64,000 nt of DNA from Candidatus Polarisedimenticolaceae bacterium (GCA_035649595.1 DASRJG010000082.1:10141-74140); one strand, 5' to 3'; positions 40,659-50,937 are shown, counted from the stretch's first letter. The notes: a model not told the origin generated them from the sequence alone. Made by a program: numbers and translations.

Positions 40659-41495
40659 TCAGAAGCGGAACACGGGCACGACCGCCACGTACCAGCCGCC
40701 GTTGAAGTCGGTGCCGGTGTCGAGTGCGAGGTCGATCCAGGGGCGCGGGGTGTAGGAGCCGCCGACGCCGAAGGTCCAGGGGTGCTCCGGTCCCTGGTCC
40801 ACCTCGAACGCGAGCGTTCCGCCGTCGGGATCGGCGACCGTTCCCGTCGCCTGCGCGAACGTGTCCCAATAGGTCCCGCTGATCCACGCGCGAATCGGAC
40901 GCGAGCCGGCCGTGCCGTGCCAGCCGCTGCGGAGCGAGGTCACGACCGCCTTGAACTCGTCGTCGAAGCCGAGGTCGGCGCGTGCGCCGTTGATGTCGGC
41001 CGCGAAGAAGAACGGACCGTAGCCGCCCGCGAGCGTGACGCCCAGGCCGCCCACGGTGCCGGTCATCTCGGTCGGAACGGCGAGCCGGCGCTGCCGCGGG
41101 CTCCCGCCCGGAAGCAGCGGCGGCAGCGTCACGTCGATGGTGGTCGTGGATTCGTTCCAGATGTAGCCCGCGATCGCGTACACGTTGAGGAACGGCAGGA
41201 GCCAGACGTCCGCCTTGAGATTGGCGTTGTCCACGCGCGAGGTCGAGCCGAGCTGAGCGAAGCCGCTCACGGACGAAGGGGTCGCGCCGTTGCGTCCGAC
41301 GCGGACGTCGCTGATCTCGATGGCGCGGTCGAGGTGGTAGTAGACGAGGCCGATCCCGAAAGGCGCGGGCAGCTCGATCCCGCGCTTGCGCGCTTCGTCG
41401 CCCAGGAACGGGAGCGTGCGCGACCCCGTCTCGTCGCCGGCGAGAGCGGGGGACGCGAGGGCGAGCAGCGCGGCCAGCACGATCGGGATCCGCAT
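40659..41495 (-). CDS. Outer-membrane beta-barrel protein, hypothetical
   Basis: Signal peptide MRIPIVLAALLALASPALA, beta-strand periodicity and a C-terminal VVPVFRF. The internal ATG at 41495 is preferred over the ORF-track start. Confidence 0.55.
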   Translation of the reverse strand: MRIPIVLAALLALASPALAGDETGSRTLPFLGDEARKRGIELPAPFGIGLVYYHLDRAIEISDVRVGRNGATPSSVSGFAQLGSTSRVDNANLKADVWLLPFLNVYAIAGYIWNESTTTIDVTLPPLLPGGSPRQRRLAVPTEMTGTVGGLGVTLAGGYGPFFFAADINGARADLGFDDEFKAVVTSLRSGWHGTAGSRPIRAWISGTYWDTFAQATGTVADPDGGTLAFEVDQGPEHPWTFGVGGSYTPRPWIDLALDTGTDFNGGWYVAVVPVFRF

Positions 41496-41568
41496 CGGGG
41501 CGGATGCTACACCGCGATCAGCCACCGACGTCGTTCGGAGCGGCGCGAGTGTGCGCTAATCTCGAGGA

Positions 41569-41931
41569 ATGAGCCCTTCCCCGACCCACCGCCGCATATG
41601 GACCGCACGCGGTCTCGCGGTGCTCGCCGACGTCGTTCAGATCGGCCTGGTCCCGCTGTTCGTCCAAGGCGGGCTCTCCGTCTTCGACGCGGTGCTCGAT
41701 GTCTTGATGGCGGGAATCCTCACAAGGTTGGTCGGCTGGCACTGGGCCTTCCTGCCGGCCTTCCTCGCCGAGCTCGTTCCCGGTCTCGACCTCGTTCCGT
41801 CGTGGACCGTCGCGGTTCTTCTCGCGACGCGCGGCCGGGCGGTGTCCGAACCGACGGTGGCCGAGGGTCGCGTGATCGACGTCGAGCCGGTGTTCGAGGA
41901 CCCCGACCAGCGCTCCACACGGAGTCCGTAA
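41569..41931 (+). CDS. Small membrane protein, hypothetical
   Basis: Three hydrophobic helices (LAVLADVVQIGLVPLF, VLDVLMAGILTRLVGW, AFLPAFLAELVP). No family recognised. Confidence 0.4.
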   Translation: MSPSPTHRRIWTARGLAVLADVVQIGLVPLFVQGGLSVFDAVLDVLMAGILTRLVGWHWAFLPAFLAELVPGLDLVPSWTVAVLLATRGRAVSEPTVAEGRVIDVEPVFEDPDQRSTRSP

Positions 41932-41942
41932 GCCGCGGTCTC

Positions 41943-42455
41943 TCAGTACTGGAAGCCGATGACGACCGGGATGAACGACGACTTCGGGTCCGTCTGGTAC
42001 TGCAGGTACATCGCCTCCAAGTAGACGCGCCTCTTGATCACGATGCCCGCGCCTCCCTGAAGGGTCCAGTCCCACTCCGAGGAGCGTACGAATGAGCCCG
42101 AGAGCGGCCCCGGACGGGTGAAGGTGGCGCGGCCGTAACCCGCGCCGGCGAAGACGTAGCCGAACGTCTCCCGTCTGCCGAACCGTGCGAGCCCCTCGAC
42201 GTCGAAGCCGAATGCCCGGCCGCCGTCGATCGCGCCGTGCGCCGTCGTGTCGCCGTAGTAGACCCCGGCCCGGCCCCCGAACACCTCTCTCGCGAACACG
42301 GTGCGCGCCTGGAGGTACCAGGACGTGTCGTTCGTGTCCTCGAGGTCGCCGCTCGGGATGAACGCGCCGACTCCAAGCCCCGACGCGCGTCCGTCGTAGG
42401 CGGCGGCTGCGGTCGACACGATCGCGCCGAGAGCCAGAGCGAGACGAGCTTTCAT
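41943..42455 (-). CDS. Small outer-membrane beta-barrel protein
   Basis: Signal peptide MKARLALALGAIVSTAAA, alternating strands and a C-terminal VVIGFQY. Confidence 0.6.
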   Translation of the reverse strand: MKARLALALGAIVSTAAAAYDGRASGLGVGAFIPSGDLEDTNDTSWYLQARTVFAREVFGGRAGVYYGDTTAHGAIDGGRAFGFDVEGLARFGRRETFGYVFAGAGYGRATFTRPGPLSGSFVRSSEWDWTLQGGAGIVIKRRVYLEAMYLQYQTDPKSSFIPVVIGFQY

Positions 42456-42492
42456 GGCGAACCCTCCTCGTGAGAGACAGAGCCTACGCCTG

Positions 42493-43227
42493 TCAGACGA
42501 TCTTCGTCGCTCTGCAGAACAGCATGCGCTGGTCGAACTTGTAGCTGTCGCGATTCCTCATCCCTTGCGGGAAGAACCTGTCGAACGGGGGAATCTCCAT
42601 GAGGGGACTGAAGAGTCCCGCGCCGTCCATCTCGTCGACCCGGAAGCCGTTGTCGCTCAAGAGCGATCGCATCTCCGCTTCGGTGAAGTGCTGGTGCCAG
42701 CTCTTTTCCTTTTCGACGTTGCCGACCAGGCCGTACGGGTTGTCGACGTAGCGATATCGGTACTCTTCGGCGGAATGCCGCATCCGGTAGAAGACCCGGT
42801 GCATCCTCGGGAATACGAACTTGAGGTTTCCGGCATCGAGAAAGGAGAGGATGTTCTTCTTCGGCGTCGAGACGATCAGAGTTCCGCCCGGCTTCAGCAC
42901 GCGATGGATCTCTCGAAGCACGGCCGATTGGTCGTGGATGTGCTCGAGCACTTCGAAGATGGTGGCGACGTCGAAGGAGTCGGCCTCGAAGGGTAGCCTT
43001 TCGCGTATCGGCTGTATCGAAAAGGGCTCGCCGTTCGCCTTCGTAAGGTCAGCGTCCTTGTCGACTCCGTGGTAGTCGACCTTCTTCCATCTCAGTAGGT
43101 TCTTGCCAAACCAACCGTCGCCACACCCGTAGTCGAGCAACCGGACGCCCTCGTGGATGTGTTCGAACCCGAAGGCAAACCGCGGAATGTCGTAGAACGG
43201 GTTCGTCTTCTCGATGACACGACGCAT
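42493..43227 (-). CDS. Class I SAM-dependent methyltransferase
   Basis: Motif I LLDYGCGDGWFG, FDVATIFEVLEHI and VLKPGGTLIVSTP. The gene is visibly less G+C-rich than the core genes. Confidence 0.75.
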   Translation of the reverse strand: MRRVIEKTNPFYDIPRFAFGFEHIHEGVRLLDYGCGDGWFGKNLLRWKKVDYHGVDKDADLTKANGEPFSIQPIRERLPFEADSFDVATIFEVLEHIHDQSAVLREIHRVLKPGGTLIVSTPKKNILSFLDAGNLKFVFPRMHRVFYRMRHSAEEYRYRYVDNPYGLVGNVEKEKSWHQHFTEAEMRSLLSDNGFRVDEMDGAGLFSPLMEIPPFDRFFPQGMRNRDSYKFDQRMLFCRATKIV

Positions 43228-43404
43228 GTCATTTCTCCGCGCGGCCGAGTAATGCCCATGATCTCCCCAGTTTATTGGCGTCGCATTCTATCCCTTTCAC
43301 TCACATGAGCGGCCCCTGAACGCGATGGCCCCTTCCCGACCTCGCGCTCATTCGTCGCTTGACAGGCTTTCCGGTCAACTGACCGATCTATACTCGAGGG
43401 CTCC

Positions 43405-44343
43405 ATGAGAGCCCTTCCCCTGATCGCGGTCTTGCTCTTCGCGACGTCCGCCTGGGCGCACCCCGGCGTCGGCATCGTCGAGGACTCGAAGGGGAACGTC
43501 TTTTACACCGACCTGAAGCAGGTGTGGAGGATCGCCCCGGACGGGACCAAGTCGGTCGCGGTCCCCGACGTGCACACGCACGAGCTCTGCCTCGACGCCG
43601 AGGACACGCTGTACGGCGAGCACCTCTGGTACGAGGGGGACGCGACCAAGAAATGGGGGCACCGGGTCTGGAGCCGCACGCGCGAAGGCGTGATCCGCGA
43701 CGTGATCCCGGCGCGCGAAGGGTTCCTCGACGACTACAGCTTCGTGCGCGACGGGACGGGGACGATGTACTGGGCCGACCGCGGCGCGACGGCGGTGATC
43801 CGCAAGCGCGCGCCGGGGGGCGCGATCGGGGTCCACTCGACGGGGCCTTTTCGCGACGTCAGATGGATGACCGCGAGCGCCGACGGGATCGTCTACCTCG
43901 TGGACGGGACGCGCCTCGTCAAGATCCAGCCCGATGGGAAGGCGGCCACGCTTCTCGCATCGGTAACGAAGAAGGCGTTGGGAGCGTCGGAGCATTTCCA
44001 GGGCGGGCTCTGGACGGGACCCGGCGGCTCGGTCTACGTCGCGGTGCCGGAGGACCGGGTCGTGCTCGAGGTGAAGCCCGACGGATCGACCCGGGTCGCC
44101 GCGCGCAGCCCGATGCTCTGGGCGGCCTACGGTGGGATGATCGACCGCCGCGGCAACCTGTGGCTGCTCGAGACTTCGATCGTCAACGCCGTCCGCGTGC
44201 GTCGGATCGGCAAGGACGGGAAAGAGGAGACGGTGGCATGGCGGAACAGAAGACCAAGGCGACCGGCGCCTCCGTGGACGAGTTCATCGGCGGCATCGCC
44301 GACGAGGGCCGCCGGGAGGACTGCAAGACCCTCGTCAAGCTGA
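43405..44343 (+). CDS. Secreted beta-propeller-like protein (NHL/SMP-30-like repeats)
   Basis: Signal peptide, then repeats of the type GNVFYTDLKQVWRIAPDGT, GTMYWADRG and GIVYLVDGTRLVKIQPDG. The last roughly 35 codons overlap the next gene, so the true 3' end is uncertain. Confidence 0.5.
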   Translation: MRALPLIAVLLFATSAWAHPGVGIVEDSKGNVFYTDLKQVWRIAPDGTKSVAVPDVHTHELCLDAEDTLYGEHLWYEGDATKKWGHRVWSRTREGVIRDVIPAREGFLDDYSFVRDGTGTMYWADRGATAVIRKRAPGGAIGVHSTGPFRDVRWMTASADGIVYLVDGTRLVKIQPDGKAATLLASVTKKALGASEHFQGGLWTGPGGSVYVAVPEDRVVLEVKPDGSTRVAARSPMLWAAYGGMIDRRGNLWLLETSIVNAVRVRRIGKDGKEETVAWRNRRPRRPAPPWTSSSAASPTRAAGRTARPSSS

Positions 44344-44651
44344 TGAAGAAGGCGACCGGCGCCAAGCCGGCGATGTGGGGGCCGTCGATCGTCGGCTTCG
44401 GCAGCTACCACTACAAGTACGCCAGCGGGCACGAGGGGGATTCCTGCCTCGTCGGCTTCGCCCCGCGCAAGAACGAGCTGAGCATCTACATCATGAGCGG
44501 CTTCGACGGCCATGCGGCGCTGCTGAAGAAGCTGGGGAAGCACAAAACGGCGAAGGCTTGCCTTTACGTCAAGAAGCTCGACGACGTCGACCTCGGCGTG
44601 CTCGAGGAGCTGGTCCGCCGCTCGGTCGCCCACGTCAAGACGAAGCACTAA
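44238..44651 (+). CDS. DUF1801 (YdhG-like) domain protein
   Basis: SVDEFIGGIADEGRREDCKTLVKLMKKATGAKPAMWGPSIVGFGSYHYKY fits the DUF1801 pattern. AGGAGA RBS at 44224. Confidence 0.75.
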   Translation: MAEQKTKATGASVDEFIGGIADEGRREDCKTLVKLMKKATGAKPAMWGPSIVGFGSYHYKYASGHEGDSCLVGFAPRKNELSIYIMSGFDGHAALLKKLGKHKTAKACLYVKKLDDVDLGVLEELVRRSVAHVKTKH

Positions 44652-44672
44652 CTCGAAAACCGTCCGCGAGCG

Positions 44673-44710
44673 CCACACGATTCGCTCCATCGTGAATCGC
44701 CGTACATTCC
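44673..44710 (+). repeat. Leader repeat R, copy 0 (5'-truncated)
   Basis: ccacacgattcgctccatcgtgaatcgccgtacattcc is near-identical to the cores at 46043-46080 and 47681-47718. Confidence 0.8.
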
Positions 44711-44743
44711 GCGCCGGCTCACCGTTCGGTGCCCGCGAACTAG
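44711..44743 (+). pseudogene. Internally deleted remnant of the propeller-like module gene (leader joined to the last codons ...VPAN*)
   Basis: After repeat R the sequence jumps to gtgcccgcgaacTAG, identical to the last 15 nt of gene B (48875-48889). A similar spacer and the tRNA tail follow. Confidence 0.5.
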
Positions 44744-44755
44744 ATCGGTACCGCG

Positions 44756-44798
44756 TGGTGCCGAAGGGGGGACTCGAACCCTTGCGCCCACGAGATCC
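44756..44798 (-). repeat. tRNA-Leu(CAG) 3'-fragment 1 (att-like direct repeat, decayed)
   Basis: tggtgccgaaggggggactcgaaccc/ttgcgcccacGagatcc matches the tRNA 3' end from CCA into the anticodon loop, with an 8-nt variable-arm deletion and one substitution. Confidence 0.85.
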
Positions 44799-44810
44799 CC
44801 GCGGCCGGTG

Positions 44811-45275
44811 TCAGCGCGTGAGCGGAATCGTCTTCGCGAGCTCGAAGTTGATGATCGCGTCCAGCTTGTTCTCGAGCTGGAAGAAGCGGGTGACCTTCGG
44901 GGCGGGAAGAAGGTTCCGGAACACGCCGGCGTACTTCTTCTTGACCGCGACGTCCTTGGCCTTGATGTCCAAGTACTCGGTCAGGAGCCGGTTTGCCTGC
45001 TCATCGCTCAGCGTCCCGCCGGCGGAGGTGAACTCCGTGACGACCTTGACGAGCCGGTCTCCGAGACGGGCCATGTCCAGCCGGTAGTCCCGGTACGCCG
45101 GCCAGAACGCCAGGCTCTCGTCTTCGGTCAGCTTCATGGCGTCGGCGATGATCGTTTGCCGCGCCGTCTGGACCTTGGCACGCGTCAGCTCGATGTCCGT
45201 GCCCGTCTGGCCGAGTGCGGGAGCCGCGGACCCGACCAGGAGCAGCAAGGCGAGAGAGCAACCAGCGATCTTCAA
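44811..45275 (-). CDS. Secreted alpha-helical hypothetical protein
   Basis: Signal peptide (LALLLLVGSAAPALGQ) followed by helix-prone sequence (FWPAYRDYRLDMARL...KKKYAGVFRNLL...FFQLENKLDAI). No family recognised. Confidence 0.5.
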   Translation of the reverse strand: MKIAGCSLALLLLVGSAAPALGQTGTDIELTRAKVQTARQTIIADAMKLTEDESLAFWPAYRDYRLDMARLGDRLVKVVTEFTSAGGTLSDEQANRLLTEYLDIKAKDVAVKKKYAGVFRNLLPAPKVTRFFQLENKLDAIINFELAKTIPLTR

Positions 45276-45296
45276 GATGATGGCTCTCCCTTCGAC

Positions 45297-45671
45297 CTAT
45301 TCCGTTCCACAGACGACGCAGCGGGCAACCTTGAAGCTCGTGTCCACGAGCGTGCTGTCGCGGGCGATGCGAAGGTTCACCTTGTGAGTGCTCGCGTGGT
45401 TTGAGACCTTGCGCGATCCCCGGCGCGTCGACCGGATCTCCTCGCCGTTGAAGAGCCTCTCGGTGATGGTGGCATCGACGTAGACCGTGGCGCAGGCCTC
45501 GTGAGTGTCCACCTCGACGAGGAAGACCTTCGTCACGACTTCGTCCGTGATCTGATCGACCCCCGGCGTCGCTCGCACGTCCGCGTTGCATGTGGTGGCC
45601 CGAGCGGATGGGGCGAGCGTCCAGATCGCCGCGACGATGGCGAGCGCGCGAACGATCCGAGGCACTTTCAT
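45297..45671 (-). CDS. Small secreted Cys-containing hypothetical protein
   Basis: Signal peptide MKVPRIVRALAIVAAIWTLAPSARA and four Cys residues, including a C-terminal CVVCG. No family recognised. Confidence 0.5.
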   Translation of the reverse strand: MKVPRIVRALAIVAAIWTLAPSARATTCNADVRATPGVDQITDEVVTKVFLVEVDTHEACATVYVDATITERLFNGEEIRSTRRGSRKVSNHASTHKVNLRIARDSTLVDTSFKVARCVVCGTE

Positions 45672-45912
45672 TGCATCCTCCGTCGCGAATCAGGTCGTCA
45701 CGCCGGAATCTAGGCGGGAACGGCGGCAAGAGCAAGGACGGAGCAAGGCGTCATCCGCGGGAGCCCGCGGCGGACTCCACGGGCATACCCATTCGCACCC
45801 TCGCCATGGTGTTCAAGCGCACCTCACGAACGCGGTCAACGTGCTTGCGGCGACTCTCAATCGACCCGCCAAGCAGTAACGACGACGTAGACGGCGATGA
45901 AGCTGAGTTCAG

Positions 45913-45969
45913 TGGTGCCGAAGGGGGGACTCGAACCCCCGCGGGCTTGCGCCCACTAGATCCTGAATC
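45913..45969 (-). repeat. tRNA-Leu(CAG) 3'-fragment 2 (57-nt exact att-like direct repeat)
   Basis: Identical to 48907-48963, running from the CCA end through the T arm and variable arm into the anticodon loop. Identity ends 2 nt into the 5' strand of the anticodon stem. Confidence 0.95.
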
Positions 45970-46009
45970 GCCCGAAAACTGAGAAACGACGCTGTTTCAA
46001 CAGCAGAAT

Positions 46010-46080
46010 GACACCATGACACGGCGTTCCACCACACTTCCACCACACGATTCGCTCCATCGTGAATCGAGGTACATTCC
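46010..46080 (+). repeat. Leader repeat R, copy 1 (contains tandem 11-mer ttccaccacac x2)
   Basis: gacaccatgacacGgcgttccaccacac[ttccaccacac]gAttcgctccatcgtgaatcgAggtacattcc, compared with copy 2 at 47659-47718. TACATT -10-like hexamer at 46073-46078. Confidence 0.85.
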
Positions 46081-46117
46081 ACGGCAGATCACGGTTGGTC
46101 TCGAAGGGGAGGGGCTC

Positions 46118-47257
46118 ATGCAGAGACTCGCCATCATTCTTGCCTCGCTGTTTTCCTTCCTTCTCACCCTCAGCGCCGCGTCGGCCGCTGATCCGACCCC
46201 GATCGCGCTCGGGTACGTCGGGCTCGTCGACATTGCACCGACCGCGACAGGTTACGCCGCCGTGTATGTCGATTTCGCCAACGGCGACATTCTGTTCCGG
46301 CGTCTGGACGCGACCGGCCGGCCGGGGCCGGAGGTCGTGCTCGGCCCCCTCTTCGAGTACCCCTATCCCTTCGAGCTCGCGATCGTGCCGGAGGGCAAGG
46401 GGTTCGTCGTGTACGCGTCCGGCCGGGCACGCACGATCAGAGCGCTTCCGATCGATGCCAACGGCCAGCCGAGGGGCACGGTGAAGGAGCTGGCGAGATA
46501 CGACACCGATTGGGACGTCGTCGATGCCGGAGGCTCGCACCTGCTCGTCTACAACACCTTTCGTACCGGGTTCCATGTCTTCTCCCAGGTGGTTCGGCTC
46601 GACGGCTCGCCCGCGGGCGATCCGAACCCGCTCGCCGTGTCGCCGGACATCGGCTTCATCACTTCCGGATTCATGGACGACGTGGGGGTCGCGTTGACCG
46701 ACCGGGGGTTCCTCGCCGCGTGGTCGGTGTATACCCTCCGCACCGTGAACTCGCGCCCTCTGCGGAGCAACGGGCGCGGCGACGGTCCCGGCCCCGAGAC
46801 CGTCGCCGCGGGCGATTGCTCGCGGGGAGCCGTGACCTACGGCGGCACGGGTGACGGCGCGGTCATCTACGCGACCTGCGCGTCGCCGCAGCTGGCCCTT
46901 CGACTGCACGGCCCGAGTGAGTACGCCGATCCCATCCCGCTCGACATCGACGGCCGCACCGTTTTCACGGGCTTTTTCGAGATCGACCTCGCCGCGGACG
47001 GACCGCGGGACGAGGTCGGTGTCCTGGTGGCCACGATGCCGCCCGAATCGGATCCGGACGATCCGATCTGGGTGTTCGGTCGATACGACGCCGGGGGCAA
47101 GAGGCTCTCGCCGCTGCTCGACCTGAGCGCCGCCTACGGCGTGTTCGGCTCCGGCGTGCACGTGAGGTGGGACGCCCGGCGATCGACCTACGTCCTGTCG
47201 TGGACGGGCACGGGCCCGCAGGGAGATGGGGTCTACACCCTGAGGGTGCCGCGCTGA
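46118..47257 (+). CDS. Secreted repeat (about 7-bladed, propeller-like) protein, paralog A
   Basis: Signal peptide MQRLAIILASLFSFLLTLSAASA and about seven repeats of the form ...GF.VVY/AAW...(L/I)D..G.P.G... GGGGAGGGG RBS. Paralogous to 47753-48889. Confidence 0.7.
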   Translation: MQRLAIILASLFSFLLTLSAASAADPTPIALGYVGLVDIAPTATGYAAVYVDFANGDILFRRLDATGRPGPEVVLGPLFEYPYPFELAIVPEGKGFVVYASGRARTIRALPIDANGQPRGTVKELARYDTDWDVVDAGGSHLLVYNTFRTGFHVFSQVVRLDGSPAGDPNPLAVSPDIGFITSGFMDDVGVALTDRGFLAAWSVYTLRTVNSRPLRSNGRGDGPGPETVAAGDCSRGAVTYGGTGDGAVIYATCASPQLALRLHGPSEYADPIPLDIDGRTVFTGFFEIDLAADGPRDEVGVLVATMPPESDPDDPIWVFGRYDAGGKRLSPLLDLSAAYGVFGSGVHVRWDARRSTYVLSWTGTGPQGDGVYTLRVPR

Positions 47258-47601
47258 GCGTCGGGGTTTCGACTTGGTGGTGCCGAAGGGGGGACTCCAA
47301 TTACCCGGAACGCGAGGTCGCTCCCGCACGCGCCGTTGGCGCCTGAAATCCCGAGAGCTCTGGGCCGCGGTGTCTTGCAGTAACCGAGGCAATCCCTGTC
47401 ACCACGGCGTGGGTTGCATTGGTCGCCGGGGACGTCGACGCAGACGAAGCCCGCCGGACAGGCATCGCCACCCGGCTCCCCTCCGCAGTACACGCGCGGT
47501 GGCGGATCGGCCGTGACCGTCGGCGCCAGCAGGCTCATCGCGCCGAGCGTCCCGGTGGCCAGCGCGACCGCGATCATCAACGATCGACCGATCTTCCTCA
47601 T
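47233..47601 (-). CDS. Small secreted 6-Cys protein with a junction-derived C-terminus
   Basis: Signal peptide MRKIGRSLMIAVALATGTLGA and motif CGGEPGGDACPAGFVCVDVPGDQCNPRRGDRDCLGYC. The ORF then reads through tRNA fragment 3 (GVPPSAP) and into the antisense of gene A before its stop. Confidence 0.45.
   Translation of the reverse strand: MRKIGRSLMIAVALATGTLGAMSLLAPTVTADPPPRVYCGGEPGGDACPAGFVCVDVPGDQCNPRRGDRDCLGYCKTPRPRALGISGANGACGSDLAFRVIGVPPSAPPSRNPDAQRGTLRV
47278..47297 (-). repeat. tRNA-Leu(CAG) 3'-fragment 3 (20 nt, acceptor plus 3' T-stem)
   Basis: tggtgccgaaggggggactc is identical to 48907-48926. Similarity stops in the T loop. Confidence 0.8.
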
Positions 47602-47658
47602 GGCGACTCGTCCTTCACCTCGTTCGCCCGTGTCCTCGGCCGCGCGGACCCATGCCGG

Positions 47659-47718
47659 GACACCATGACACAGCGTTCCACCACACGGTTCGCTCCATCG
47701 TGAATCGCGGTACATTCC
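47659..47718 (+). repeat. Leader repeat R, copy 2
   Basis: gacaccatgacacAgcgttccaccacacgGttcgctccatcgtgaatcgCggtacattcc. TACATT at 47711-47716, 37 nt before the ATG at 47753. Confidence 0.85.
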
Positions 47719-47752
47719 ACCGCAGTTCGCGGATCGCTCCGATGGAGGGGAT

Positions 47753-48889
47753 ATGCACAGACCGACCGTCATCCTCTTTTCTTTGCTTCTCGCGTTCGGG
47801 ACTGCACCCGCTGCGGATCCGATTCCCATCAAGATCTCTTCCGAGATCAAGTCCTTCGACGTCGTGCCGACCGCGACGGGCTACGCCGCCGTCTTCCTCC
47901 AGGGTCAAATCGTCGCGTTCCAGATTCTCGATGCGACCGGCCAGCCCACCGGAGGGGAGATCGAGCTGGGGAATCTCGGGGTGCAAGACCCAACCAAGGT
48001 GGCACTCGTCCAGGCGGGGAATGGATTCGTGGTGTACCTGAGCGGGAACGCCGGGCAAGGGGGGCTGAACGCGCTCACGGTCGGTCCTGACGGCGCGGAG
48101 ATCGGCACGATGAAGCAGGTCGTCACGAACGATATCCACGAGGTCCTCGGGGACTGGGACGTCACCGATGCGGGAAGCACGCACCTGCTCGTGTACAGCA
48201 AGGTCGGATCGCTCTTCGGTGGGTGGCCGATCTCCCGTCTCTTCGCCCAGATGGTGGGCCTCGACGGCGCCCCATCGGGCGATCCGCATGCGCTCAGCTA
48301 CGGACAATACTTGATGGGATCCGTGAACCTTTCCGCGACGAGCACAGGATTCCTCGCAGCCTGGCACGAGTTCGATGAGGGCGTGCGGACGCGCCCTGTC
48401 CTGAGCGACGGTCGCGCCGGCCCTCCCGGCCCGGAGAGAATCCCAGGGAGCAGGTGCTCGGGGTCGGTGGCGGCCTACGGCGGCACCGGTCGGGGGGCGA
48501 TCGTCTATATCGGGGACTGCGCGTCGCGGAAACCGGTGTTGCGCCTGCGCGTGGGCAACGAGTACACGGATCCGATCCCGCTCGACATCGACGACCGCAA
48601 ACGCTACCGCGATTCGTTCGATGCGGACGGCCCGCGGGACGACGTTGGTGTCGCAATGGAACTGCAGCCGCTCCTTCCGGGCCCGGGTTTCTGGGGGACC
48701 TGGCTGTTCGGTCAGTACGACACCGGGGGAAACCGTCGGGGACCGTTTCTCGACTTGGGCGCCTACGGGGTGACGAGCTACAAAGTGCAGGTCCTGTGGG
48801 ACGCGGCGCGCGCGACCTACCTGCTCCATTGGTTGGGCGGTGGGCCTCAAGGCCAAGGCGCGTACACGCTGCGCGTGCCCGCGAACTAG
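47753..48889 (+). CDS. Secreted repeat (propeller-like) protein, paralog B
   Basis: Signal peptide MHRPTVILFSLLLAFGTAPA. Blocks shared with paralog A include PTATGYAAV, LDATGQP, GFVVY, HLLVY, GFLAAW, YGGTG, DPIPLDID, ADGPRD and YTLRVP. The stop lies 17 nt from the tRNA 3' end. Confidence 0.7.
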   Translation: MHRPTVILFSLLLAFGTAPAADPIPIKISSEIKSFDVVPTATGYAAVFLQGQIVAFQILDATGQPTGGEIELGNLGVQDPTKVALVQAGNGFVVYLSGNAGQGGLNALTVGPDGAEIGTMKQVVTNDIHEVLGDWDVTDAGSTHLLVYSKVGSLFGGWPISRLFAQMVGLDGAPSGDPHALSYGQYLMGSVNLSATSTGFLAAWHEFDEGVRTRPVLSDGRAGPPGPERIPGSRCSGSVAAYGGTGRGAIVYIGDCASRKPVLRLRVGNEYTDPIPLDIDDRKRYRDSFDADGPRDDVGVAMELQPLLPGPGFWGTWLFGQYDTGGNRRGPFLDLGAYGVTSYKVQVLWDAARATYLLHWLGGGPQGQGAYTLRVPAN

Positions 48890-48906
48890 ACCGGCGTTCG
48901 ATTCGT

Positions 48907-48993
48907 TGGTGCCGAAGGGGGGACTCGAACCCCCGCGGGCTTGCGCCCACTAGATCCTGAATCTAGCGCGTCTACCAATTCCGCCACTTCGGC
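48907..48993 (-). tRNA. tRNA-Leu (anticodon CAG), class II with long variable arm, CCA encoded
   Basis: Reverse complement reads GCCGAAGTGGCGGAATTGGTAGACGCGCTAGATTCAGGATCTAGTGGGCGCAAGCCCGCGGGGGTTCGAGTCCCCCCTTCGGCACCA. Acceptor 7 bp, anticodon loop TTCAGGA, T arm GGGGG/CCCCC. Closely resembles E. coli tRNA-Leu(CAG). Confidence 0.95.
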
Positions 48994-49053: not shown

Positions 49054-50937
49054 ATGCGTCGAGCGAAGACGGCGAGGCCGCGCCGGCCTCAGAGCCGTCG
49101 AGGCGGACGGCCGTCCGCATTGTCCGCGGCGATCGAGAGGCGGCCGGCGCGCGCGGAGCGCGAGCGGCCGGTTCCCAAGGACGTGGTGATCGGGATCTTC
49201 CAGCGCGGAGGTCTCGTTGTGCCGTTCGACCCTGCGGACGGACCGGCGCTCGCGGTGTCGCCTTCGGCGCGCTCGGGCGCGCAGCCGGGGGATGCGGTCG
49301 TCGCGACGATCGTGCGCGGGGGCAGGGGAGGCTCGGAGCTGCGCATCACCGAGGTGCTGGGGCCGGTCGAGGCGCCGGGAATCGACGTGCAGGTGGTCGC
49401 GCGGCGTCACGCGCTTCGCCGCGAGTTCCCCGAAGAGGTGCGCATCGCCGCCGCACGCATGCCGCGGAAGATCCCGCCGAAGGAGATCGCGGCACGCGAG
49501 CGTTTCGACGACCCGGCGGCGGTGACGATCGACGGCGAGACCGCGCGGGACTTCGATGACGCCGTCGCGGTCGGGGATCTTCCGGGCGGGGGATTCCGGC
49601 TGTTCGTCCACGTCGCGGACGTCTCGTACTACGTCAAGCCGGGGGACGTGATCGATGCGGAAGCCCGCGCGCGCGGGACGAGCGTCTACTTCCCCAACCG
49701 CGTCTATCCGATGATGCCGGAGAGGCTGGCCGACGACCTCTGCTCGCTGCGGCCCGGGGAGGACCGGCTGGTCCAGTCCGTGATCGTCGACTACGACCGG
49801 AAGGGCGAGGTCGTCGGGACCCGCTTCGCCGACGGCGTGATCCGCTCCGCGGCGCGCCTGACCTACACGCAGGTCGCGGGGCTCATCGAGGGGAGCGAAA
49901 GCCGGGCTCCGCTCCCGGCCGAGATCGCGGCGATGCTGCGGCGCGCCGAGGCGCTGCGCGACCTGCTGGAGACGCGCCGCCATGCGCGCGGGAGCATCGA
50001 CTTCGACCTCCCGGCGCCGATGATCCTGCTGGACGTCGAGGGGGCGATGACGGGGATCCGGATCGAGCCCCGCAATCGCGCGCACCGGATGATCGAGGAG
50101 TTCATGCTCGCCGCGAACGAATCGGTCGCGGGCTGGCTCTCGGCGCGGAAGGTCCCCTGCCTGTTCCGAGTCCACGAGAATCCGGACCCGCTCAAGATCG
50201 AGGGGCTCGAGGCGTTCGCGCGGTCGCTGTCGCTGACCTTGAAGTCGGGGCGCGACGGGGTGCGGCCGAAGGACATCCAGAAGCTGCTCGACGACGCGGA
50301 GGGGATGCCGGCGTATCCGGTGGTGACGCAGCTCGCGCTTCGCTCGATGAAGCAGGCGCGGTACAGCCCGGAGGACTCGGGGCACTTCGGGCTCGCCGCC
50401 CCTCACTACCTGCACTTCACCTCGCCGATCCGCCGGTATCCGGACCTGGTCGCGCACCGCGCGCTGCGGGCGGCGCGACACCGCGCGAAGCCGGCGGTAC
50501 GCGGCGATCTGGAGCCCCTGGCCGACGCGTGCTCGAAGCTGGAGCGCGAGGCGGAGGCCGCGGAGCGGGAGCTGCTCGACTGGAAGAAGGTCAAGTTCCT
50601 GCGCGGACGGGAGGGGGAGGTCTTCGACGGGATCGTCACCGGCGTCGCGAGGTTCGGCGTCTTCGTGCAGCTCGACGGCGGGATCGCCGAGGGCTTGATC
50701 CGTGTCGAGCGGCTCGGCCCCGAATGGATCGAGTTCGATCCGGTGCGACACGAATTGCGCGGATCGTCGAGCGGACGGGTCTGGAGGCTCGGCGATCCGC
50801 TCCGCGTGCGCGTCGAGCGGGTGGACGCCGTCCTGCGCCGCGTCGATCTGCTCCTCGTCGAGGAGCGTCCCGCGGCTCGCGAGGCCTCCCTATCACGGAA
50901 CCGGCCTCGCAAACGGGACAATCGAGGTCGGCGCTAG
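49054..50937 (+). CDS. rnr: Ribonuclease R
   Basis: RNB-domain motifs (DGETARDFDDAV, HVADVSYYV, VYFPNRVYPMMPERL, HFGLAAPHYLHFTSPIRRYPDL), a C-terminal S1 domain (GVFVQLD) and a basic tail. Confidence 0.92.
   Translation: MRRAKTARPRRPQSRRGGRPSALSAAIERRPARAERERPVPKDVVIGIFQRGGLVVPFDPADGPALAVSPSARSGAQPGDAVVATIVRGGRGGSELRITEVLGPVEAPGIDVQVVARRHALRREFPEEVRIAAARMPRKIPPKEIAARERFDDPAAVTIDGETARDFDDAVAVGDLPGGGFRLFVHVADVSYYVKPGDVIDAEARARGTSVYFPNRVYPMMPERLADDLCSLRPGEDRLVQSVIVDYDRKGEVVGTRFADGVIRSAARLTYTQVAGLIEGSESRAPLPAEIAAMLRRAEALRDLLETRRHARGSIDFDLPAPMILLDVEGAMTGIRIEPRNRAHRMIEEFMLAANESVAGWLSARKVPCLFRVHENPDPLKIEGLEAFARSLSLTLKSGRDGVRPKDIQKLLDDAEGMPAYPVVTQLALRSMKQARYSPEDSGHFGLAAPHYLHFTSPIRRYPDLVAHRALRAARHRAKPAVRGDLEPLADACSKLEREAEAAERELLDWKKVKFLRGREGEVFDGIVTGVARFGVFVQLDGGIAEGLIRVERLGPEWIEFDPVRHELRGSSSGRVWRLGDPLRVRVERVDAVLRRVDLLLVEERPAAREASLSRNRPRKRDNRGRR

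Follow-up and report, generated by a model that had tools for sequence, protein, structure and literature searches.

A stack of very small secreted-protein gene units adjoins tRNA-Leu(CAG) in an uncultured soil Acidobacterium, and the units are separated by leftover 3'-end copies of that same tRNA gene. Within the 64-kb window (the whole stretch of DNA analysed here), one intact tRNA-Leu(CAG) and three co-oriented 3'-end copies (51 nt with an internal deletion, 57 nt and 20 nt) alternate with three modules, each made up of a leader (R), a propeller gene (M) and a spacer, one of the three lacking its coding region. The first-pass annotation had given the order as DUF1801, M0 (deleted), frag1, two secreted-protein genes, frag2, M1, frag3, a 6-Cys gene, M2 and tRNA, and had described a repeated unit of leader R, M gene, spacer and tRNA tail; the order is correct and the repeated unit is real. 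Positions below are counted from the first nucleotide of the window.

41526-48906: lineage-variable region, from the start of the OMP288 gene to the tRNA 3' end
41569-44651: older accessory block within the variable region
44668-44743, plus strand: R0 and M0 remnant, in which R0 runs straight into the final four codons and stop codon of M0, followed by a 12-nt spacer
44756-44798, minus strand: frag1, a copy of the final 51 nt of the tRNA that lacks 7-8 internal nt and carries one mismatch
44811-45671, minus strand: geneB-geneA pair, small signal-peptide proteins, between frag1 and frag2
44811-45275, minus strand: geneA
45297-45671, minus strand: geneB
45913-45969, minus strand: frag2, a 57/57-nt match to tRNA nt 31-87 (BLAST) and the left boundary of the M1 unit
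45970-46009, plus strand: A+T-rich 40-nt linker between frag2 and R1
46010-46117, plus strand: R1, conserved upstream/leader region of M1
46118-47257, plus strand: M1, predicted secreted beta-propeller protein, 379 aa
47233-47601, minus strand: 6-Cys small secreted protein gene (conserved part 47368-47601)
47278-47297, minus strand: frag3, a 20/20-nt match to the tRNA 3' 20 nt (BLAST), with its endpoint in the T loop
47659-47752, plus strand: R2, leader of M2
47753-48889, plus strand: M2, predicted secreted beta-propeller protein, 378 aa
47689-49037: recent homologous-recombination tract that the window shares with the L083 lineage, running from the 3' part of R2 through M2, spacer and tRNA to 44 nt past the tRNA 5' end
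48907-48993, minus strand: intact tRNA-Leu(CAG) (ARAGORN, single call; Rfam tRNA, 60 bits)
49054-50937, plus strand: RNase R gene, beyond tRNA-Leu(CAG) and away from the array

An assembly artefact can be ruled out, since the order is identical in independent contigs from three samples and in an NCBI genome. Indeed, it recurs in the independent assemblies L002 and L087 (one sample), L089 and L091 (two further samples), and M1 and M2 carry adjacent locus tags in an NCBI metagenome-assembled genome.

tRNA fragments, leaders and cargo

The intact tRNA-Leu(CAG) is the conserved anchor of the array; its sequence is identical in the two other lineages compared (L001 and L083), and its synteny with RNase R is kept across Acidobacteriota. 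The 3'-terminal 20-mer of the tRNA, TGGTGCCGAAGGGGGGACTC, has four exact copies, at 44756, 45913, 47278 and 48907, all on one strand (start-to-start spacings of 1157, 1365 and 1629 nt), and was recovered in none of 100 shuffled sequences. Each fragment has the same orientation as the tRNA and starts precisely at the CCA end, though the abutting DNA differs from one to the next. Their other endpoints lie at tRNA nt 31, 37 and 68: frag2 takes in the entire anticodon loop and reaches 2 nt into the 5' anticodon stem, while frag1, aligned by BLAST as 26 exact nt, a 7-8-nt deletion and then 18 nt with one mismatch, has its endpoint in the anticodon. We estimate a chance of ~1% for three endpoints placed in this way if breakpoints were uniform along the 87 nt. 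No further decayed tRNA fragment was significant at the left border of the variable region or beside DUF1801.

Three copies of the R core are present, where chance alone would give none. R1 and R2 align over ~108 nt, and R1 holds two copies each of TGACAC and TTCCACCACAC as well as overlapping palindromes. R0 (44673-44726) is 87% identical to R1, and the adjoining 44729-44798 is 78% identical to the end of M2, its spacer and the tRNA, the coding region of M0 having been deleted down to its last four codons and stop codon. M1 and M2 are paralogues (45% identical; 63% at the nucleotide level), followed after 20 and 17 nt of spacer, respectively, by a tRNA tail. Although M1 matches nothing in Pfam, a family model predicts a beta-propeller fold for it, and the AlphaFold model of M2 has a mean pLDDT of 89 with propellers as its best fold matches. 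The M family diverges fast and has very few relatives among 1.8 billion representative proteins; an NHL-like propeller at 43405 in the same window was rejected as an M paralogue (hhalign probability 0.9%). Across all 94 loci examined, every R lies upstream of an M gene, Rfam contains no match to it, and no significant fold was predicted for it as a structured leader. M itself does not always sit beside a tRNA: in the nearest outgroup homologue, P0011, judged on its downstream side, the next gene follows after 46 nt, leaving no room there for one.

Besides the propellers, the cargo consists of small signal-peptide proteins, namely the 6-Cys peptide, whose ORF runs on through frag3, and the geneB-geneA pair. 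The latter is a conserved operon at ordinary non-tRNA loci in all three contexts recovered (L092, L093 and L094), and its homology reaches as far as the stop codon of geneA on one side and ~50 nt before geneB on the other. G+C is 0.59-0.69, mostly 0.64-0.67, in sampling windows wholly inside the variable region versus 0.69-0.73 in the core flanks; this lower G+C, together with the occurrence of geneB-geneA at ordinary loci without tRNA fragments, makes the cargo look foreign. Self-comparison shows no paralogue in the array for either the geneB-geneA or the 6-Cys unit, both of which have flanking fragments. R is absent from both, and no shared arm-like motif was found linking the M, geneB-geneA and 6-Cys units; the one marginal candidate, a 19-nt match, was equalled in 21 of 500 shuffles before multiple-test correction and was rejected. 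A 135-nt deletion in the window between the 6-Cys gene and R2 was likewise considered; it is at most a possibility, the 34 nt left there showing no significant similarity to the L083 sequence.

Array contents in three lineages and a shared recombination tract

Our comparison spans three lineages, all represented by metagenome contigs, which carry three different contents rather than one fixed arrangement: OMP288, M3 and tRNA as a single module with no fragment in L001; a decayed fragment, the 6-Cys gene, the 57-mer, M2 and tRNA in L083; and five units in the window. Within each lineage the arrangement is fixed (three samples plus the NCBI genome for the window type, four contigs for the L083 type). 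The variable region always lies between the outer-membrane-protein gene OMP288 and the tRNA, its left border falling 11-18 nt upstream of the OMP288 ATG in all three lineages, and the decayed L083 fragment directly adjoins the OMP288 start, so that an ancestral empty site can be inferred. That decayed fragment, left of the 6-Cys gene, is the counterpart of frag3; it is at least 29 nt long with an ambiguous endpoint class, and since the window has only a 20-mer at this place, the T-loop endpoint of frag3 may be secondary. An orthologous 56/57 copy of the 57-mer lies upstream of R-M2 in L083-L086. The 57-nt direct repeats thus flank the M1-to-M2 block in the window and M2 alone in L083, where the linker has equal length (40 nt) and a strongly diverged sequence.

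Against this background of divergence, the tract from the 3' part of R2 to 44 nt past the tRNA 5' end is ~99% identical between the window and the L083 lineage, while the flanks are only 75-85% identical. M2 differs at 14 of 1137 nt (98.8% identical), the spacer, tRNA and next 44 nt show no differences, and the only departures of the L083 copy of R from R2 are an 11-nt repeat unit and a single base; outside the tract, identity falls to 84.9% for RNase R, 74.7% for the 6-Cys gene and 78% for the left flank. As judged from these alignments, the R2-M2-tRNA block was imported recently as a foreign allele by homologous recombination, and the M0 coding region was deleted. Because the tract reaches past the tRNA 5' end, the transfer of M2 is homologous and not site-specific, and homologous recombination is the only movement demonstrable at the array from the available contigs. 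We further infer that the unit of 57-mer, 40-nt linker, R, M and spacer has been multiplied or exchanged.

These comparisons bear on whether the array could have grown by purely local tandem duplication, with R, M, spacer and tRNA copied in place by unequal crossing-over at a breakpoint in the tRNA, and the copies later diverging and being partly deleted. M0, M1 and M2 are indeed paralogous, with homologous leaders and tRNA-tail spacers, and a 57-nt repeat, once in place, would add further copies of the unit through unequal exchange with the tRNA. However, two fragment-flanked units, geneB-geneA and 6-Cys, are paralogous to nothing in the array, the 57-mer is perfect though M1 and M2 have diverged to 63% nucleotide identity, M1-M2 divergence exceeds that between lineages while M2 itself was imported recently, and P0011 has no tRNA on its downstream side. 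Self-comparison shows homology of M, R and the tRNA tail only, which is not the pattern of a tandem segmental duplication, nor can the fragments be parts of a single ancient one, given that the geneB-geneA and 6-Cys units have no paralogous flanks. Local duplication is highly improbable as an account of the array, and as its sole mechanism it is contradicted.

Recombinase search and origin of the fragments

No recombinase, integrase, excisionase or transposase domain was detected by Pfam in any of 48 ORFs scanned across the window, comprising nearly every called ORF of at least 200 aa plus the small array genes, and the tyrosine-recombinase box II/Tyr motif is absent from all six frames. None of the ORFs called within 6 kb of the tRNA in nine relatives resembled an integrase over its first 60 residues, and neither the tRNA 40-mer nor R has a match among viral contigs in IMG/VR, where a phage or provirus attP was sought. 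The first-pass annotation, which had suggested small elements mobilised in trans or a recombination-driven cassette locus, is upheld in part. Its repeated unit, its recombinase-free array (0/48 ORFs, with no integrase-bearing island appearing once neighbouring DNA is counted) and its placement of the endpoints at the two classical att positions all stand, the 51-nt copy ending in the anticodon loop, the 57-nt copy 2 nt beyond it and the 20-nt copy in the T loop. Mobilisation in trans is not borne out, as no integrase, no circle junction and no arm motif common to the unit types was found.

In our view there is an even chance that the fragments record ancient site-specific insertions at the anticodon-loop and T-loop positions, whose scars have become inert and been reshuffled by homologous recombination. 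The DNA between OMP288 and tRNA-Leu(CAG) would then be an accretion region, into which short accessory segments were inserted successively within the 3' half of the tRNA gene; each insert would have brought its own tRNA 3' part, restoring the gene and leaving the earlier 3' part farther out as a direct-repeat scar. At the outset, insertion would most likely have been site-specific, the work of a tyrosine integrase encoded elsewhere acting on att sites of anticodon-loop and possibly T-loop type. The present array, recombinase-free and apparently inert within each lineage, would now evolve by ordinary recombination between the conserved ends that its parts carry with them (R leader, tRNA tails and tRNA). 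Co-oriented fragments starting at the CCA end and their loop endpoints argue for tRNA-targeted integration, and the differing contents of L001, L083 and the window argue for accretion. Several observations argue against site-specific scars: fragment lengths of 57, 51, 20 and, in L083, at least 29 nt, whereas a single integrase would be expected to leave copies of uniform length; the lack of any recombinase domain or motif in the window; units that, at 0.4-1.6 kb, fall far short of the usual island size and have intact genes, next to the tRNA tails, at the usual place of an integrase gene; the absence of an arm-like motif common to the unit types; and a single traceable transfer that passes the tRNA 5' end and is thus homologous.

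The main rival is an integrase-free sequential displacement, which we consider rather unlikely. Here, DNA from a related strain would bring in a tRNA-neighbour gene together with the tRNA itself, pairing homologously on the conserved tRNA/RNase R side. It would be joined to the resident tRNA at a point inside the gene, through homology-facilitated illegitimate recombination or, for a fragment that had become circular, through Campbell-type RecA insertion, and every event would strand the old tRNA 3' part with its neighbours, a course of events already put forward for orphan Rhs tips and T6SS immunity arrays. This would accommodate the variable fragment lengths (57, 51, 20 and at least 29 nt) and the lack of a recombinase in the ORFs or six frames scanned, and import by homology on the tRNA side is directly seen in the tract ending 44 nt beyond the tRNA 5' end. 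The homologous M1 and M2 spacers are also as expected if M were the native tRNA neighbour in the donor, as it is in L001, and a similar array topology in Vibrio cholerae T6SS and Rhs loci has been ascribed to the same mechanism (PMC5361080). Random joins, however, would not predict that all three window endpoints fall in the anticodon and T loops, nor that every fragment begins exactly at the CCA end, and a tRNA-anchored heteroduplex should span the whole identical tRNA instead of stopping within it. Furthermore, no donor with geneB-geneA or the 6-Cys gene beside a tRNA was found among the recovered contexts, the three geneB-geneA contexts being non-tRNA, and such recombination has been described in the literature as orders of magnitude rarer than homologous recombination.

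Alternatively, the unit of 57-mer, 40-nt linker, R, M and spacer, and perhaps others, could consist of active cis-mobilizable or integron-like cassettes served by a recombinase from elsewhere in the genome or from a helper, the tRNA tail acting as recombination site and R or the A+T-rich linker as arm; we consider this improbable. It is in keeping with the perfect or near-perfect 57-nt direct repeats around a 1.3-kb one-gene unit in two lineages, with unit ends (the 5' part of R and the tRNA tail) far more conserved than the 40-nt linker or coding region, with an M2 that is 98.8% identical between lineages 15-25% diverged elsewhere, and with R direct repeats that resemble arm-type sites. Yet no recombinase was found, the arrangement is invariant across the three samples and NCBI genome of the window type and the four L083-type contigs, the M2 tract passes beyond the tRNA as expected of homologous and not of site-specific exchange, the 6-Cys and geneB-geneA units lack R, and R lies solely upstream of M in 94 loci, as a promoter or leader would. 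It would be a long shot to regard this unit as an undescribed miniature recombinase-less cassette multiplying and moving between Polarisedimenticolaceae lineages via its tRNA 3' segment with a recombinase encoded elsewhere, and we give equally little credence to the tRNA-Leu locus as an integron-like capture platform for small secreted-protein genes. If the units were in fact mobilised actively in trans, no smaller tRNA-targeted integrative unit would be on record. A tRNA-primed reverse transcription of M mRNA, for which the tail complementary to the tRNA 3' end would resemble a primer-binding site, was also considered and set aside: there is no reverse transcriptase, geneB-geneA and the 6-Cys gene have the opposite orientation, and the transcript would need to include all of R.

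Relation to known arrays

The array is a miniature, recombinase-free version of the known pile-up of islands at tRNA genes. As in Islander-type islands, an intact tDNA is accompanied by co-oriented 3' fragments that run from the CCA end and mark the far end, with anticodon-centred or T-arm endpoints (anticodon-centred and T-stem att sites are tabulated by Islander; PMC4383910) and accessory, lineage-variable cargo of lower G+C. Unlike those islands, it has no tyrosine integrase in or near any unit (48 ORFs and a six-frame motif scan), and its 0.4-1.6-kb units hold one or two genes, with a cargo gene at the usual integrase place. In this respect it approaches the cis-mobilizable elements (CIMEs) and tandem accretion (defined in PMC5704250) seen in ICESt1-related elements and in the integrase-less ssrA islands of Dehalococcoides, about half of which lack an integration module and were suggested to be CIMEs (PMC3146451): there too, att-like repeats flank units stacked at one t(m)RNA gene without integration and transfer genes. 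The array differs from CIMEs in that its lineage has no known cognate integrative conjugative or mobilizable element or integrase, its fragments are unequal in length and its units are an order of magnitude smaller.

Partial tRNAs are likewise scattered beside a full tRNA in the tycheposon-built islands of Prochlorococcus (10.1101/2020.12.28.424599), where they are read as older integrations and where most of the island lacks an integrase; the present array, in contrast, has no tycheposon-like element (tyrosine recombinase plus replication module), belongs to another phylum and is far smaller. In topology it resembles the orphan arrays of Rhs and T6SS loci, in which each new module is added beside a one-sided constant anchor, displacing older modules that retain a piece of the constant region, and the anchor-proximal module is replaced homologously. 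Here, however, a tRNA gene takes the place of the protein-coding core as anchor, the breakpoints fall at tRNA loops, and no toxin-immunity logic is evident. Integrons share small, mostly single-gene cassettes stacked at a fixed site with repeats in one orientation, but the array has no intI, attI or attC-type imperfect palindromes, its repeats are tRNA 3' segments, and its cassettes carry their own leader with genes in both orientations.

A tRNA gene may thus keep serving as a landing site for accessory genes over long periods, even once every recombinase is lost. Its leftover tails, together with a conserved leader, would provide portable homology by which ordinary recombination exchanges, multiplies and removes individual genes across lineages that differ by 15-25%. 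Standard island finders depend on an integrase gene and a minimum size and would overlook such arrays. The fast divergence of the secreted propeller family and the scarcity of its relatives point to a strain-variable surface or secreted function.

Tail fragments of a tRNA-Leu(CAG) gene

The window is core chromosome and carries dxr-uppS-cdsA-rseP, hemCD, gcvTHP, RNase R, Tol-Pal and recN; the pairing of tRNA-Leu(CAG) with RNase R is kept in the other Acidobacteriota loci that we recovered and in a few other loci. The 3'-terminal 20-mer of this tRNA occurs at exactly four places in the window (44756, 45913, 47278 and 48907), on one strand throughout, and gave no match in 100 shuffles. A BLAST search of the window with the tRNA as query, plus local alignments, set the extents of its three partial copies:

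tRNA-Leu(CAG) and its 3' fragments in the window
48907-48993, minus strand: intact tRNA-Leu(CAG), called by ARAGORN, the sole tRNA of the window
44756-44798, tRNA strand: frag1, 26 nt matched exactly, 7-8 nt missing internally, and a further 18 nt with a single mismatch
45913-45969, tRNA strand: frag2, 57/57 nt (tRNA nt 31-87), spanning the full anticodon loop and two 5' anticodon-stem bases
47278-47297, tRNA strand: frag3, 20/20 nt, ending within the T loop

Frag1 represents the 3' 51 nt of the tRNA, its end falling on the third anticodon base; no additional fragments were detectable from 40 to 49 kb. The fragments are co-oriented, each starts exactly at the CCA end, and unrelated cargo follows. 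The first-pass annotation had described these fragments as interleaved with gene modules, and ARAGORN, BLAST and local alignment bear it out: the finding is real and the order it gave is correct. Nor is this order an assembly artefact; it is identical in independent assemblies, two of them (L002 and L087) from one sample and two (L089 and L091) from two others. An NCBI metagenome-assembled genome ('Candidatus Polarisedimenticolaceae bacterium'), which contains locus tags VFB67_05330 and VFB67_05335, gives the genes of modules M1 and M2 neighbouring tags.

Leaders, modules and cargo

A leader, R, is present in three copies against none expected by chance, each copy (R0 to R2) heading a propeller-gene module (M0 to M2):

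Leaders, modules and the 6-Cys gene
46010-46117: R1, leader of M1
46118-47257: M1, ending 20 nt before a tRNA tail
47659-47752: R2, leader of M2
47753-48889: M2, ending 17 nt before a tRNA tail
L083 5054-5158: R of a relative's locus
47233-47601, minus strand: 6-Cys ORF, 122 aa, reading through frag3 into the M1 3' end
L083 4622-4864: 6-Cys orthologue, 80 aa

R1 and R2 can be aligned over ~108 nt, as far as the start codons, and M1 and M2 are 45% identical; in M0, R0 is joined directly to the final four codons with their stop, and a 12-nt spacer follows. Across all 94 loci fetched, R stands only upstream of M genes, and by this placement it behaves as a putative promoter or leader. It matched nothing in Rfam and gave no significant predicted structure. 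TGACAC occurs twice within R, TTCCACCACAC is found in two copies in R1 and in the L083 leader and in one copy in R2, and two palindromes overlap (CACGAT..ATCGTG and CGATTC..GAATCG); these internal repeats and palindromes suggest a predicted regulator binding region.

The M proteins belong to no Pfam family and form just 3 clusters at 90% among 5.8 billion proteins; a profile search of 1.8 billion returned 26 representatives with E below 1e-10, most of them 375-410 aa long. The earlier label 'propeller-like' holds, since M2, modelled with 22 homologues (mean pLDDT 89), comes out all-beta and is matched best in the PDB by beta-propellers. Another gene lies 46 nt downstream of the closest outgroup M homologue, so that no tRNA can fit on that one side.

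The M, geneA, geneB and 6-Cys proteins all have signal-peptide-like N termini, as judged by eye from the sequences rather than with a predictor. Five clusters make up the tiny 6-Cys family. Homology between the window and L083 6-Cys genes ends ~7 nt short of the L083 stop codon, so the native stop was apparently lost at the window junction. The NCBI annotation apparently has no gene call between M1 and M2. The geneA family (~155 aa) is well conserved, with 184 matches at 60-90% identity; some sources label geneA a phasin. In relatives, geneB-geneA is a conserved two-gene operon, found in three loci (L092 7447-8468, L093 2450-3306 and L094 906-1765) in ordinary contexts with no tRNA or fragment, L094 and L092 sharing a locus linked to pgl (6-phosphogluconolactonase). 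Their homology to the window reaches from ~50 nt upstream of geneB as far as the geneA stop codon, so that an operon-sized piece lies between two tRNA tails in the window lineage. Pure tandem duplication, which we consider very unlikely, would leave the geneB-geneA and 6-Cys units unexplained.

Three arrangements and an exchanged tract

Three lineages, all represented by metagenome contigs and ~82-87% identical in RNase R at the nucleotide level, have three different arrangements, which begin with OMP288, an outer-membrane-protein gene:

Arrangements at the tRNA-Leu(CAG) locus
L001: OMP288, 40 nt, truncated R, M3, 44-nt spacer, tRNA; no fragment
L083-L086: OMP288 remnant, decayed tRNA fragment, 6-Cys (80 aa), 56/57 copy of the 57-mer (the tRNA 3' 57 nt), 40-nt linker, R, M2, tRNA
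Window lineage: OMP288, 3.1-kb accessory block, R0 and M0 remnant, frag1, geneA-geneB, frag2, 40-nt linker, R1-M1, frag3, 6-Cys, R2-M2, tRNA

M3 shares 42-47% identity with M1 and M2. The variable region runs, in each of the three lineages, from a point 11-18 nt upstream of the OMP288 start codon to the tRNA, and its G+C is 0.59-0.69, mostly 0.64-0.67, against 0.69-0.73 in the core flanks. The decayed L083 fragment (25/29 matches; its score is 38, and none of 500 shuffles exceeded 24) sits right at this shared left border, which implies a probable ancestral empty site with OMP288 adjoining the tRNA. No tRNA fragments occur in L005-L007, the three among the nearest GTDB relatives that have usable DNA on that side. 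OMP288 is intact in the window (40659-41525) and in L001, and a ~90-120-nt remnant of it (L083 4414-4536) is found in 4/4 L083-type contigs.

The L001 and L083 lineages lack the accessory block (41569-44651), whose left border shows no detectable tRNA fragment. Its genes are for a small membrane protein, an OMP beta-barrel, a methyltransferase, a secreted NHL-like propeller and a DUF1801 protein; the methyltransferase gene falls where G+C is lowest (0.59 for 42500-43499). The propeller (43405-44343) and DUF1801 (44238-44651) ORFs overlap by ~100 nt as listed; the DUF1801 start is ambiguous, and gene callers on L002 place it later, for 102 aa.

Between the window and L083, M2 differs at 14 of 1137 positions, and the spacer, the tRNA and the first 44 nt past the tRNA 5' end do not differ at all; L001 has ~ten differing positions in those 44 nt. 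Elsewhere the window and L083 are 84.9% (RNase R), 74.7% (6-Cys gene) and 78% (left flank) identical. The left edge of near-identity falls inside R, where L083 R and R2 differ by one 11-nt repeat unit and one base. This R-M2-tRNA stretch is a recombination tract of ~1.35 kb, and since its right end lies beyond the tRNA, its source was homologous and not site-specific recombination. Small elements mobilised in trans and a recombination-driven cassette locus had both been offered as explanations of the array; both are possible, and this tract gives direct support to recombination-driven exchange alone.

Origin of the array and its likeness to known loci

The array has the topology of repeated insertions into a tRNA gene's 3' half: its fragments are co-oriented and start exactly at CCA, the cargo is unrelated, one end carries an intact tRNA, and an empty site can be inferred. 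The three window endpoints all fall within the anticodon stem-loop or T loop, for which we estimate a chance of roughly 1% under uniform breakpoints, and these are attachment positions tabulated for tRNA islands (PMC4383910). This favours site-specific integration, which would have been followed by long residence without a recombinase, an origin to which we give an even chance. Its main rival is a sequential displacement that needs no integrase and takes homology on the tRNA and RNase R side as its anchor, a process also put forward for Rhs and T6SS orphan arrays (PMC5361080). Homologous import is demonstrated here, the fragments vary in length (51, 57 and 20 nt; at least 29 in L083), and in L001 M natively adjoins the tRNA; but the endpoints are loop-centred and no donor was found with geneB-geneA beside the tRNA, and we hold this account to be unlikely, if worth serious consideration.

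No recombinase or transposase domain was found in the array ORFs or the other window ORFs scanned (48 in all; the seven without any Pfam match were tested at E up to 1e-5), nor was a tyrosine-recombinase box II/Tyr motif in a heuristic check of the six frames of the window. Among the ORFs called up to 6 kb from the tRNA in nine relatives, inspection of the first 60 residues alone gave none that was integrase-like; IMG/VR contigs contained neither the tRNA 40-mer nor R, and the M, geneB-geneA and 6-Cys units have no flanking motif in common. Active mobilisation in trans, for which the anatomy of the array is the one argument, appears improbable.

Under the favoured integration origin, the array resembles several known cases: Dehalococcoides, where the integration module is missing from roughly half of the ssrA-stacked islands (PMC3146451), CIME and accretion arrays (reviewed in PMC5704250), and Prochlorococcus islands with partial tRNAs scattered throughout (10.1101/2020.12.28.424599). 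What is unusual is that the units are very small and five in number in the window, and that intact cargo genes lie directly against tRNA tails; a unit of 57-mer, A+T-rich 40-nt linker, R, M and spacer also recurs as strongly diverged alleles with conserved ends. We regard the array as a miniature, recombinase-free form of a known kind of locus, and this form as new. Another small insertion at this tRNA-Leu(CAG) locus is seen in a Thermoanaerobaculia genome (L065 7745-8247), where two small ORFs, one YoeB-type toxin-like and the other Phd/YefM-type antitoxin-like, lie between the tRNA and the RNase R gene.
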